A stretch of 64,000 bases of DNA from Candidatus Tayloriibacteriota bacterium (GTDB lineage: Bacteria > Patescibacteriota > Minisyncoccia > Phycocordibacterales > CAIRYW01). The stretch spans positions 5,051 through 69,050 of the forward strand of contig JAQBQZ010000014.1 of the NCBI GenBank assembly GCA_028286725.1. Direction: 5' to 3'. The position numbers and the translations under genes were made by a program. Positions within the stretch are counted from its first letter, which is position 1; each line of letters starts with the position of its first letter. The notes under the pieces were generated by a model. That model was not told the origin of the DNA, did no database searches, and was given only the letters and a program-made list of their open reading frames with translations. Positions 616-50,239 of this stretch are shown in pieces.

Positions 616-766
616 ACAACCGAATAAGCGCCTAACCCGTTAGTTTTCTAACGGTATGGCAACAAGTCAGGACATGAATAAAGAACCCATCATAGGGGTC
701 GCATGTCCTGCCGTGTGGGGAAACCTGCACGAGTAGCTTCGGCTACTACCTTGTGGTGGGCTTTTT
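616..766 (+). ncRNA. Structured leader or small RNA candidate: three hairpins, the last capped with UUCG and followed by a T-run
   Basis: Hairpins ccgttag/ctaacgg (637-654), gtcaggacatg/catgtcctg (666-710) and cacgag-gtagc-UUCG-gctac-cuugug (728-755), then ttttt at 762-766. Sits directly upstream of the ORF starting at 770/794. Confidence 0.3.
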
Positions 767-9111: not shown

Positions 9112-9645
9112 ATGGCAAAAATCACTATATTTGGGCTCGCAGGGACGGGCAAAGGTACTGTTTGTAGGCTTCTCTGTGAGAAGCTTGGCTACCGATCTTT
9201 TTCGGGCGGAGACTTCGCCCGAGAGACTGCTCGCAAAATGGGTCTCACGATAAATGAGATCGATGAGCTTTCTCGATATGACAAAAGTGTTGATATTGAA
9301 AGAGATCGGGTGATCGAAGACTTTGGTAAAACCAATGACAATTTTGTCGTGGAGGCTCGACTTGGGTGGAAGTTTATTCCTGATTCATACAAGGTGAGCT
9401 TTGAGTGCGATTTTGAAGAGCGTACTCGTCGTGTAGCTCAGAGAGAGAAGAAAGATATCGTAACTGTACAAGCTGAAACTGTACAAAGGGAAAACGCGAT
9501 CTATGATAGATTTCTCAAATATTATGGAATCAAAAATGTTAATGATCCAAAACATTTCGATCTCATTATTGATACGACTCATATTACGCCAGAAGAGATT
9601 GCAGAGAAAATTATAAACGGACTCAAAGAGAATAATGTTTTTTAG
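9112..9645 (+). CDS. cmk: Cytidylate kinase, archaeal-type (Cytidylate_kin2 family)
   Basis: P-loop ITIFGLAGTGKGTV and overall similarity to archaeal CMP kinases. 177 aa. Confidence 0.6.
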   Translation: MAKITIFGLAGTGKGTVCRLLCEKLGYRSFSGGDFARETARKMGLTINEIDELSRYDKSVDIERDRVIEDFGKTNDNFVVEARLGWKFIPDSYKVSFECDFEERTRRVAQREKKDIVTVQAETVQRENAIYDRFLKYYGIKNVNDPKHFDLIIDTTHITPEEIAEKIINGLKENNVF

Positions 9646-9836
9646 AATCTAATTCAAAATTAATGAACTATACAAAACCCAAAATTTTGAAGGAAAAAAC
9701 AAAGGATGAGGAAGGAGGCCTAGCGGTGCTAAGCAGACTGACGAAACTTGGTTTTTTACCAAAATTTTGGGTTTTGGATGTTAAAGTTTTATTTTCTTGT
9801 ATTTATTATAAACGGTTAATTTTGAATTAGATTCTG
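9643..9836. mobile_element. MITE-like palindromic element, copy 1, with perfect 20-bp terminal inverted repeats
   Basis: TIR agaatctaattcaaaattaa (9644-9663) pairs with ttaattttgaattagattct (9816-9835). Nested 17-bp IR caaaacccaaaattttg/caaaattttgggttttg. Purine-rich core aaggatgaggaaggaggc. Left TIR overlaps the cmk stop codon. Confidence 0.5.
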
Positions 9837-9837
9837 T

Positions 9838-10248
9838 ATGAACTTTAAAAAATTCGCATACATATTTGGTGGATTTTATATTTTGTTAGCACTCGCTTCT
9901 GTCTACCCAAATGACATCATAGGACACAACGCATTTTTGTCGACTGACTTTCTGCATAATTTTATTCATCTACTTATTGGGTTTGTGCTTGTTGGCATTG
10001 CACTATGGGACAATGATGAACATTTCTCACTTCCTCGAGTGATTCGAACTATTGGAGGAGTGCTTATTGTACTTGCCGTATTCGGTGCATGGTTTACGGG
10101 GTTAGATATCGGCAAGATCATGGGACTCATCACGGTAAATGGGACAGCAAATATTTTGCATCTTATTACTGGAGTCTTGTGTATTGTGGTTGGAACTTCA
10201 CCGCTTCGAAATTATCGCAAAGGAGATGGTGTAATGCATTCACATTAA
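9838..10248 (+). CDS. Hypothetical integral membrane protein
   Basis: 136 aa with four hydrophobic helices. Confidence 0.4.
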   Translation: MNFKKFAYIFGGFYILLALASVYPNDIIGHNAFLSTDFLHNFIHLLIGFVLVGIALWDNDEHFSLPRVIRTIGGVLIVLAVFGAWFTGLDIGKIMGLITVNGTANILHLITGVLCIVVGTSPLRNYRKGDGVMHSH

Positions 10249-17570: not shown

Positions 17571-17834
17571 ATGAAAAAAGAAATCCATCCAGACAATTTT
17601 AGACCAGTTGTATTCGAGGACACTACTACAGGTGCCAAATTCCTCATTTCTTCTGCAGTTGTCACAAAAGAGACTACAAATTTTGAAGGCAAGGAATATC
17701 CACTCTATCACGTGGAAATCTCTAGTGCTTCACACCCTTTCTATACAAATACAGAAACTCTCATCGACTCAGCCGGACGAGTTGAGAAGTTCAAGAACCG
17801 AGCGTTGAAGTCAGGTGCAACAAAAGCTAAATAA
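17571..17834 (+). CDS. rpmE: 50S ribosomal protein L31 (type B, no zinc ribbon)
   Basis: [28 protein letters not shown]…HPFYTN… pattern. 87 aa, no CxxC motif. Confidence 0.8.
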
Positions 17835-17843
17835 CTACTTATA

Positions 17844-17878
17844 AAAAACAAAGCTTCTTTAAGAAGCTTTGTTTTTTA
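17844..17878. terminator. Palindromic terminator after rpmE
   Basis: aaaaCAAAGCTTCTTtaAGAAGCTTTGtttttt. Confidence 0.55.
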
Positions 17879-17931
17879 TTTTCTCCCATCCTTTATACTA
17901 GATACCAAATACTATATACTAAGCATTAATT

Positions 17932-24227: not shown

Positions 24228-24840
24228 TTGGCAGCGCTGGATAGCTACTGTATATGTAAATATATAGAGGAAAGTCCGAACACGGGCTGAGTATCACACT
24301 CTGTGTGATACGTATTTAAACATTTAAATATTTAAATTCGTATCGCGCGCAGCGTGATACTCGGGCGGGTAGTGGGTAATTCCCATCATTAGGAGGTATC
24401 CTATAGAGGTGCGAGCAGAGACGCTCAAAGCGAAATGCTGAGAGTGCCCTGGAAGAGTTCATTCATAATCTAATGTCGAGATAGAATTCCAAAATTTTGT
24501 GCGAAAACCAGGAATTTAGACGAATCATATCGGTGATATGGTAAGGAGAAATTACTGAGTTTGCAGCCAAAATTTTGGAATTCTATACGGCAAGCATTGT
24601 TTTGAATTTAAGTTTGCGTTTAGATTATGAATGAACTCTTTAGGGTAAGTTTTGTGGCAACACAAAAGTGAAACGGCAAAACCCTTACTTCCGTGCAAGA
24701 CCGTACCCGTGCATCGCACTTCGTGCGATGCACGGGGGTGTCGCTTGATTCGTTTGGTAACAAACAGAACAGATAAATTGCTATCGTTGCCGCAAGGCAG
24801 GCACAGAATTCGGCTTATAGGCGCTATACAAAACACTTCA
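24228..24840 (+). ncRNA. rnpB: RNase P RNA (bacterial type A core) with large insertions
   Basis: P4 strands GAGGAAAGTCCGAAC (about 24266-24280) and ACAGAATTCGGCTTATAG (about 24803-24820). Ends are approximate; about 610 nt versus the usual 350-400. Confidence 0.8.
24482..24585. mobile_element. Short palindromic MITE-like element (copy 3, deletion derivative) apparently inserted inside rnpB
   Basis: 17/18-bp IR tagaattccaaaattttg … caaaattttggaattcta. Shares the tagaat terminus, the ccaaaattttg inner-repeat motif and a purine-rich ggtaaggagaaa core with the 9643 and 39375 elements. Confidence 0.35.
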
Positions 24841-32816: not shown

Positions 32817-32890
32817 GCCCTTGTAGTTCAATGGATAGAACAGTCCCGTCCTAAGGGATAGATGCACGTTCGATTCGTACCAGGGGCACA
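32817..32890 (+). tRNA. tRNA-Arg (anticodon CCT)
   Basis: Hand-folded cloverleaf: acceptor GCCCTTG/CAGGGGC, D-arm GTTC-AATGGATA-GAAC, anticodon stem GTCCC/GGGAT with loop gTCCTaa, T-loop TTCGATT (one C-A mismatch in the T-stem). CCA not encoded. Confidence 0.7.
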
Positions 32891-38592: not shown

Positions 38593-39393
38593 ATGGCAAA
38601 CAAAAAAGTTAAAGTATTGGTGTTTTCGGGATATGGGCTCAACTGCGAAGAAGAGACCAAATATGCTTTTGAATTGGCGGGAGGTGATGCCGATATTGTG
38701 CATATCAATGACCTCATCGCAGGTATAAAGAAGATCAAAAATTATGACATCCTTGCTTTCCCCGGAGGGTTTTCTTTTGGTGATGATACAGGAAGTGGGA
38801 AGGCGTACGCAAACAAGGTTCGAAATCACTTATGGAAAGATATCGAAGAATTCATTGCCAAAGACAAGCTTATTATTGGAATTTGTAATGGATTTCAGAT
38901 TCTTACAAATCTAGGTATTCTTCCAGGAGCTTTGATGTGGAATGATAGCGCTCGATATATCGACCGATGGGTTGATATCAAGATAGAAGGCAAGAGTCCG
39001 TGGCTTACAGGTATCGACACGATCTCACTCCCGATCGCACACGGCGAAGGAAAATTCTATACAGATACTGAGACATTGAAGAAAATCAAAAATGAGAATG
39101 CGATTGTTGCTCGATATGTCAAAGGCGAGACTTGTGAAATGACAGGACTATCCTCGAATCCTAATGGAGCTCTTGAAGATATTGCTGGCGTACTAGGCAA
39201 TAATGGAAATATCATCGGTATGATGCCACATCCAGAAAGAGGATTGTTTGTATCTCAATTACCAAACTTTCCATATCTAAAAGAAAAAAGTAGAAGAGAC
39301 GGAAAGAAGCTCCCTAAATATGGTCCTGGTTTTCAGATATTTAAAAACGCAGTGGAATATTGTGCTAGAACCCGTCTCAAAATTAACCGTTAA
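38593..39393 (+). CDS. purQ: Phosphoribosylformylglycinamidine synthase glutaminase subunit
   Basis: KVLVFSGYGLNCEEETKYAFELAG…GICNGFQIL…MMPHPER class-I glutamine amidotransferase triad. Confidence 0.85.
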   Translation: MANKKVKVLVFSGYGLNCEEETKYAFELAGGDADIVHINDLIAGIKKIKNYDILAFPGGFSFGDDTGSGKAYANKVRNHLWKDIEEFIAKDKLIIGICNGFQILTNLGILPGALMWNDSARYIDRWVDIKIEGKSPWLTGIDTISLPIAHGEGKFYTDTETLKKIKNENAIVARYVKGETCEMTGLSSNPNGALEDIAGVLGNNGNIIGMMPHPERGLFVSQLPNFPYLKEKSRRDGKKLPKYGPGFQIFKNAVEYCARTRLKINR

Positions 39394-39552
39394 TTAAATT
39401 CAGATGCAACTTGAATATTCAAAAGCTAAAATTTCGGTAAAAAATAAAGTTTCGTCAGTCAACATAACGCAGTTATGCCTCCTTCCTCATCCTTCATTTT
39501 TTTCTCGAAATTTTAGCTTTTCTATTATTCATTAATTTTGAGATGGATTCTA
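39375..39552. mobile_element. MITE-like palindromic element, copy 2 (inverted relative to copy 1, diverged)
   Basis: Reverse complement aligns to the 9643-9836 element: tagaatc…caaaattaatgaa…aaggatgaggaaggaggc…gactgacgaaact…ttttttacc…aacggttaatttt. Its own inner 16-bp IR aaaagctaaaatttcg/cgaaattttagctttt shows compensatory changes. One end overlaps the purQ stop. Confidence 0.45.
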
Positions 39553-50114: not shown

Positions 50115-50169
50115 CGGCACAAAATACAAAAAACCACACAGAATCTGTGTGGTTTTTTGTATTTTGTGC
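50115..50169. terminator. Perfect 26-bp-arm palindrome directly downstream of tRNA-Phe
   Basis: ggcacaaaatacaaaaaaccacacag-aat-ctgtgtggttttttgtattttgtgcc. The inner ccacacag/ctgtgtgg stem plus tttttt acts as a terminator on either strand. The symmetry extends into the tRNA 3' end (gctctctcggca versus tgccgagagcc). Confidence 0.5.
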
Positions 50170-50239
50170 CGAGAGCCAGATTCGAACTGGCGACCCCTTC
50201 CTCTTCAGGGAAATGCTCTACCAACTGAGCTATCTCGGC
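50167..50239 (-). tRNA. tRNA-Phe (anticodon GAA)
   Basis: Minus-strand cloverleaf GCCGAGATAGCTCAGTTGGTAGAGCATTTCCCTGAAGAGGAAGGGGTCGCCAGTTCGAATCTGGCTCTCGGCA. All four stems pair and the T-loop is TTCGAAT. Confidence 0.85.

Follow-up and report, generated by a model that had tools for sequence, protein, structure and literature searches.

The gap between a cytidylate kinase-like gene (cmk) and its downstream neighbor in this Candidatus Tayloriibacteriota genome is filled from end to end by a single palindrome, which raises the question of whether this sequence belongs to the locus, for instance as a structured terminator, or is a copy of a repeat that was inserted there. We addressed this using the whole 64,000-nucleotide stretch of DNA in which the locus lies (the window), together with scans of other genomes and metagenomes. 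An earlier note on this DNA had described a 194-bp MITE-like palindrome at 9643-9836, with perfect 20-bp terminal inverted repeats, a nested perfect 17-bp inverted repeat and a purine-rich core, and all these features were found where it had placed them; the element proper is refined here to 9645-9834. The layout of this copy (copy 1) is as follows.

9112-9645 (+): cmk-like ORF, Pfam Cytidylate_kin2; its TAG stop overlaps the left arm
9643-9644 (+): left flanking TA, the first two bases of the cmk TAG stop (9643-9645)
9645-9834 (+): copy 1, element proper, 190 nt, GAATC...GATTC; 199 bits against the family model
9644-9663 (+): left terminal inverted repeat, 20 nt, perfect, AGAATCTAATTCAAAATTAA
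9670-9689 (+): inner stem, 5' arm; pairs with 9760-9779, with covariation across the family
9702-9719 (+): core, 5' half, AAGGATGAGGAAGGAGGC, purine-rich
9720-9735 (+): apical hairpin; the sequence varies and the pairing is kept (helix 6, in which 5 of 7 pairs change on both sides)
9736-9745 (+): core, 3' half, GACTGACGAA
9760-9779 (+): inner stem, 3' arm; pairs with 9670-9689, with covariation across the family
9783-9812 (+): T-rich bulge of variable length, in the 3' arm only; unpaired in the consensus structure
9816-9835 (+): right terminal inverted repeat, 20 nt, perfect, reverse complement of AGAATCTAATTCAAAATTAA
9835-9836 (+): right flank TG, the degenerate counterpart of the left TA
start 9838: next ORF, DUF4383-like, 2 nt past the right arm

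The element is in sense orientation, reading in the same direction as both flanking genes, and the G of the cmk TAG stop is its first base. The nested repeat is perfect over 17 bp (9673-9689/9760-9776) and extends to 20 nt at 95% identity (9670-9689/9760-9779). A folding check, which had been proposed for this element, showed that copy 1 forms one long hairpin on either strand, far more stable than shuffled sequences with RNA parameters (z = -8.0 and -10.2 for the two strands), with a z of about -8 under DNA parameters. An independent short-read assembly of the same sequence (L016, Logan SRR13312974 contig) terminates inside copy 1, as is usual for assemblers at repeats.

The earlier note had also held that homologous copies exist elsewhere in the window, and this is borne out. 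When as many as 3 mismatches are allowed, the terminal-arm pattern has three occurrences in the window against 0.08 expected from shuffles. The two further copies, with the RNA gene that harbors one of them, are:

24229-24830 (+): rnpB (RNase P RNA), RF00010, 72 bits, E 9e-22
24454-24639 (+): copy 3, a diverged member; 97 bits with the covariance model of the family
39366-39367 and 39551-39552: TA flanks of copy 2
39368-39550 (-): copy 2, element proper, lying antisense to its neighbors purQ and NUDIX; 190 bits

Copy 2 is 78% identical to copy 1 over 183 nt (39366-39552, minus strand, blastn against the window). The two share the core AAGGATGAGGAAGGAGGC, a 16-nt hairpin and GACTGACGAAACTT without any difference, and their stems change in a compensatory fashion (ccc/ggg to gct/agc; ctagc/gctag to cataac/gttatg). 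Copy 3 keeps the family scaffold and has a different apical core. A further, weaker match at 17794-17906 turned out to be a generic hairpin that does not belong to the family.

Outside the window about 25 copies were recovered from other genomes and metagenomes, so that the sequence is a repeat family, as had been proposed, and not a one-off terminator; empty sites are available for all three window copies (see below). A scan of one genome per species, using a core pattern that fixes 24 core positions, yielded 15 loci in Paceibacterota, Taylorbacteria, Saccharibacteria, other Patescibacteria, Selenomonas and Peptococcaceae. These are hairpins of 156-195 nt (156-221 nt over all copies), whose stems are unrelated between lineages and which have the common core in their center. 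One Paceibacterota metagenome-assembled genome (MAG; JBAYHV01) carries four copies, two Selenomonas MAGs (CAMVGU01 and JAGBLH01) carry near-identical copies, at least four in one and two in the other, and the family is also present in one Peptococcaceae MAG. A metagenome scan that constrained only the 5' half of the core gave 85 matches, many of them near-duplicates, of which about 16 are true family members. The 5' half AAGGATGAGGAAGGAGGC is the same, letter for letter, in copies 1 and 2 of the window and in every copy that came from Patescibacteria, Selenomonas and Peptococcaceae, with the invariance of the 24 core positions among L001-L015 being partly built in by the search pattern. The 3' half GACTGACGAA was left unconstrained in the metagenome scan, yet it is kept in about 14 of the 16 members. 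The exceptions are L080, with one substitution, and the CPR-type copy L027:2307-2527, in which a 30-nt GC-rich hairpin (CCTGTCTGCCGAAGCCTCGGCGTAGGCAGG) lies between GACTGAC and GAAAC and turns the internal loop into a three-way junction. The termini are also conserved across copies, being GAAYC...GRTTC in Patescibacteria and GGAAC...GTTCC in Selenomonas; the longer terminus strings are GGAACTGTAG...CTACAGTTCC and GAAYCYATYTC...GRTTC. Three rumen copies show a 27-nt expansion of the apical loop. At two Selenomonas loci this expansion is present in some samples (L041, L082, L110) and absent in others (L011, L102), reflecting either homogenization between copies or an assembly artefact of collapsed repeats.

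The family matches no entry in Rfam and no phage or plasmid sequence, and our literature searches retrieved no paper containing the core or terminus strings and none on such repeats in CPR bacteria. We describe it as a new family of a known kind, closest in its behavior to the Correia, RUP, ERIC and RPE repeats, and with no detectable sequence relationship to any of them. Several known RNA classes were considered and rejected. The core GGAAGGAGGC...GCAGACUGACG resembles domain IV of 4.5S RNA, but no Rfam SRP model matches it even at E-values up to 10, and the element is multi-copy. A hammerhead reading of GAUGA...CUGA...GAAA fails on the order of the strands and on the hairpin that L027 carries between the stem and the GAAA, and a C/D-box K-turn reading fails on snoRNA matches of 15-18 bits against thresholds of 42-60. 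More generally, Rfam returns nothing at the element at gathering thresholds, and with permissive filters only noise of 20 bits or less against thresholds of 34-211. Elsewhere in the window there is a full-length match to the LOOT RNA motif at 629-747 (+) (RF03000, 81.7 bits, E 7e-14), an Rfam sRNA gene class, and two ordinary tRNA genes, tRNA-Arg(CCT) at 32817-32889 (+) and tRNA-Phe(GAA) at 50166-50239 (-).

Nor does the element code for a protein. The sole ORF of copy 1 (55 codons, 9663-9830) is interrupted after 12 codons in copy 2, and could thus not be upheld as a small protein gene; furthermore, the apical hairpin differs in length by non-multiples of 3. A reading of the terminal arm as a three-frame stop was likewise set aside, as its TAG, TAA and TGA all lie in one frame (checked by hand). 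An origin from phages or plasmids was rejected on the lack of any blastn match in either and of any core match in viral contigs. About ten hot-spring contigs (L028, L037, L042, L054, L065, L086, L098, L105, L108) contain the exact AAGGATGAGGAAGGAGGC within an IS110-type transposase ORF (...RMRKEANRYLKWAFIEAANA...). However, similarity to the element ends with this 18-mer, the 3' half of the core is absent and about 30 chance matches are expected, and judging from the sequences we take this co-occurrence to be probably a coincidence.

Comparison with orthologous loci indicates how the copies came to be where they are. The cmk/DUF4383 junction is empty in three relatives (L022, L024, L026), with gaps of 1-4 nt and no element, and the TAG stop of the window cmk occupies the same codon position as the TAA stops of these three. 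The orthologous loci of close relatives are empty for copies 2 and 3 as well, and the family model found no copy at those relatives' loci. All three copies are therefore recent insertions. The TA-type target duplication, which the earlier note had suggested looking for, is clearest at copy 2. In the element-free relative L017, whose PurQ is 91% identical, the gap between purQ and the NUDIX gene is 3 nt. Removal of the element and one TA from the copy 2 locus gives TGT GCT AAA AAA TAA TTT ATG (read by hand), which has the same length as the empty site of L017, TGT AAG AAA AAG TAA TCT ATG. The site thus reconstructs exactly and supports an insertion at a TA with duplication of the target, although the same sequence would result from AGAAC...GTTCT having been inserted between T and A with no duplication. 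This insertion also altered the protein: the purQ ORF, which ends at 39393, runs 26 nt into the terminal arm of copy 2, whereby the last nine codons and the stop are encoded by the element, giving PurQ the tail ARTRLKINR* where its homologs have K-rich or FK-type ends.

TA makes up 19 of the 30 dinucleotides that flank the 15 CPR-type copies, where the background frequency is 0.062 (P about 3e-16); as TA is itself a palindrome, a duplicated TA is not strictly separable from a longer inverted repeat. Copy 1 shows an imperfect duplication (TA/TG), and at copy 3 none is visible (AA/TT). Perfect 3-bp direct repeats are instead present at four of the seven Selenomonas or Firmicutes-type loci, with a sequence that varies from locus to locus (TAA, TAT, TAA, TTA), whereas none of the CPR-type copies has a 3-bp TAA/TTA duplication. 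A strict 2-bp TA is seen in the CPR type and in the Peptococcaceae copy L001, and the Firmicutes type is better described by a 3-bp TWA.

Copy 3 lies within an RNA gene. The 820-nt gap in which it lies is occupied by rnpB, which had been missed by the standard Rfam scan because its 72 bits fall below the gathering score of 100. In the Rfam alignment this rnpB has a 185-nt insertion in the loop of its GGugcgGUAAGAcgcaCC hairpin, and the insert is copy 3 in sense orientation. This hairpin would correspond to P12 of the E. coli M1 RNA. The relatives L111 and L113 have a short UUCG-capped hairpin at the position of copy 3 and lack the element. The flanks of copy 3 pair with each other, and given its sense orientation it would extend the rnpB helix coaxially. 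A second insertion in the window rnpB, about 96 nt long, lies near the 5' part of the gene (about 24275-24375). The element-free rnpB genes of L111 (3308-4076) and L113 (3314-4168) have other long insertions, which contain sequence repeated within them (e.g. ...GGAATAATCAATAA(C/T)CAAAC...AATAATCAAACAAAATGCATTCGCAT...) in two parts of the gene. Hairpin insertions may therefore land repeatedly in the RNase P RNA genes of CPR bacteria. Lui et al. 2021 (PMC8172020) reported that many of the RNase P RNAs in CPR bacteria score under model thresholds and have large helix extensions, and copy 3 represents one concrete origin of the "large extensions of helices" in these RNAs.

Inverted-repeat termini, a 2-3-bp duplication, the lack of coding capacity, the presence of multiple copies and insertion polymorphism together lead us to the interpretation that this is a non-autonomous MITE-like element of about 190 nt, encoding no protein, which targets TA in CPR bacteria or T-W-A in Firmicutes, duplicates the target and is mobilized in trans. 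We consider this the probable explanation. As in MITEs, the copies are short (less than about 300 bp) and non-coding, have terminal inverted repeats and a target duplication, and are dispersed and polymorphic. A 2-3-bp TA/TWA duplication next to inverted repeats that reach the junction is what DDE cut-and-paste transposition classically leaves behind, and the mobilizing enzyme would accordingly be predicted to be a DDE-type transposase that makes such duplications, either IS630/Tc1-mariner-like or IS5/PIF-Harbinger-like. Elements of the IS200/IS605 type have neither terminal inverted repeats up to the junction nor a target duplication; they possess subterminal hairpins and insert 3' of a fixed tetra- or pentanucleotide. 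The present family does not conform to such IS200/IS605-derived elements (PATEs), since its inverted repeats extend to the very junction and are accompanied by a duplication. Copy 1 would have landed on the TA of the cmk stop codon, with its first G restoring the TAG, and because these genomes are so compact, surviving insertions would be expected to sit at the extreme ends of genes or in tolerant loops of RNA genes. The fit is weak in one respect, in that no single transposase family neatly accounts for both the 2 bp of the CPR type and the 3 bp of the Firmicutes type. The cognate transposase gene with matching termini for which the earlier note had proposed a search was not found: about 670 kb of fetched loci contained no autonomous parent and no solo or distant matching termini. 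Candidate termini at L078:7828 proved to be coding sequence.

Several known families behave in a comparable way. The Correia elements of Neisseria (CREE/NEMIS) are non-coding, multi-copy elements of 100-155 bp with terminal inverted repeats and TA insertion with duplication, which lie next to or between genes in either orientation and form a long hairpin when transcribed. The cmk family is likewise small (about 190 bp), non-coding and multi-copy, with terminal inverted repeats, a TA duplication, placement beside or between genes, occurrence in either orientation and a long hairpin. It differs from Correia elements in having no Rfam or BLAST similarity to them, in its host phyla and in the lack of a detectable IHF site or promoter within the element, and the conserved non-palindromic G/A-rich apical core and the covariation along the whole length are features of its own. 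RUP and other IS630-derived MITEs (e.g. in Streptococcus pneumoniae) are about 100-200 bp long, have terminal inverted repeats and a TA duplication and depend on a DDE transposase in trans. The cmk family has the same type of duplication and termini, a comparable length and a probable mobilization in trans; in contrast to RUP, no IS630 parent with matching termini was found in the fetched loci and the Firmicutes-type copies appear to have 3-bp duplications. ERIC/IRU and RPE repeats are imperfect palindromes of about 100-150 bp with compensatory changes, and RPEs insert in genes and add residues to proteins. This is paralleled by the nine residues that copy 2 adds to PurQ, by the location of copy 3 inside rnpB and by the maintenance of the hairpin through compensation. 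ERIC/IRU and RPE repeats, however, have no defined TA duplication, occur in other taxa with other sequences and lack a cross-phylum core. REPINs are doublets of REP units of about 25 nt with a conserved GTAG and no target duplication. The REPIN/REP system with its RAYT (Y1 HUH) enzyme resembles the cmk family in its long single-stranded hairpins, intergenic location and multiple copies, and by analogy the latter could be mobilized by a single-copy domesticated enzyme. Mobilization of the RAYT type would fit the strand asymmetry described below, but the cmk family is not a doublet of short units and has TA/TWA duplications.

A transposase that recognizes only the termini leaves three features unexplained, namely the pairing along the whole length, the strand bias and the core common to different phyla. 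In the 15 CPR-type sequences, 96.2% of the cells of a 63-pair consensus are paired and 39 of the 63 pairs change on both sides; none of 500 shuffles reaches the observed value and slid registers give 30-53%. Pairing is kept along the whole 85-bp hairpin. The hairpin is therefore selected, and since palindromic DNA covaries too, this covariation by itself does not specify the level at which selection acts. Copies 1 and 2 differ by 22% yet keep the structure and the core even though their insertions are recent, which indicates constraint on the source elements. A single-stranded form of the sense strand is suggested by three asymmetries. Firstly, the sense strand is more stable than its complement in all 15 members, by about 12 kcal/mol on average. 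Secondly, G.U cells outnumber A.C cells by 43 to 13, or 22 to 13 when two recurrent positions are left out. Thirdly, 14 of the 15 members retain a U.G wobble next to a bulge. The non-palindromic core is common to phyla whose stems keep no similarity. It may be read as 5'-GA-G-GA-AG-GA-3' opposite 5'-GA-CU-GA-C-GA-3', which would form three tandem G.A/A.G mismatches with Watson-Crick pairs between them; on the complementary strand, pyrimidine mismatches would stand in their place.

These features are what would be expected under the best-placed alternative, in which the element is mobile via a single-stranded intermediate, either ssDNA with an HUH/Y1-type enzyme or RNA with a reverse transcriptase, and must fold as the sense hairpin with the core serving as a recognition module. 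The greater stability of the sense strand in every member and the excess of G.U over A.C speak for it, as do covariation extending well beyond the termini and the retention of an asymmetric core and of the U.G wobble on unrelated stems. Moreover, the core tolerates the addition of peripheral hairpins (L027, L041, L082, L110) in the manner of structured nucleic acids, and the structure kept in recent copies 22% apart would reflect selection on the source elements. We nevertheless regard this alternative as unlikely: the termini and the TA/TWA duplications match DDE cut-and-paste, no gene for an HUH enzyme, a reverse transcriptase or another candidate adjoins any copy examined, and the G.U excess becomes modest once the two recurrent positions are discounted. 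Under the preferred reading, that of a non-autonomous element mobilized in trans, the whole-length hairpin with its G/A-rich apical core would be needed as a single strand, whether to propagate or to coexist with host transcripts without harm.

A yet less probable explanation, which we would rate as very unlikely, is that the element is primarily a structured RNA beneficial to the host (e.g. an RNase III site, a stabilizer of mRNA 3' ends or a protein decoy that exposes GGAGG), with mobility being secondary. Its long perfect stems (17-22 bp), the placement of the rnpB copy in sense as a coaxial helix extension and the analogy with Correia and ERIC hairpins, which are processed in mRNA, would agree with such a role. 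About 14-15 of 20-21 copies are co-oriented with their neighbors, so that the sense hairpin would be transcribed in most cases, but with six antisense copies (copy 2 and five others) this excess does not reach significance (binomial P about 0.1). Close relatives that lack all of the window copies do well, Rfam gives no match at any threshold, and neither a promoter nor a terminator signal in the element rises above chance, the TTCAAG in the 3' arm being separated from a TATAAA-like box by a spacer that varies from 13 to 20 nt. Finally, a structured terminator or attenuator that is peculiar to the junction of cmk with its downstream neighbor, as might be surmised from the way the very stable fold fills the whole intergenic space, is almost certainly wrong, given the copies at unrelated loci and in other phyla, the same junction being empty in three relatives, and the lack of a T-run or of any terminator-like site (GC-rich stem followed by a T-run) in 9450-10000.

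Descriptions of small mobile repeats are scarce for Patescibacteria (CPR), whose genomes are ultra-small and gene-dense, and this family shows that such genomes still acquire selfish DNA, which lodges on stop codons, at the C-termini of proteins and in a helix of RNase P RNA. A practical consequence is that the repeat fragments short-read assemblies of CPR genomes and yields spurious small ORFs and extended gene calls. A core held in common with rumen Firmicutes on unrelated stems, along with a strand-specific hairpin, is unusual for a MITE, and on these grounds the family is worth considering as a source of either a new transposase-substrate pair or a structured RNA or DNA motif that is transferable. 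We tentatively raise the possibility that it is a mobile structured nucleic-acid module, whose sense hairpin and core, with three tandem G.A mismatches and an exposed GGAGG, might be read in single-stranded form by a putative dedicated protein. If this were true, a module recognized as a single strand would explain the persistence of the core in Patescibacteria and Firmicutes on unrelated stems, and likewise how copies come to be taken up as extensions of helices in essential RNAs such as RNase P RNA.
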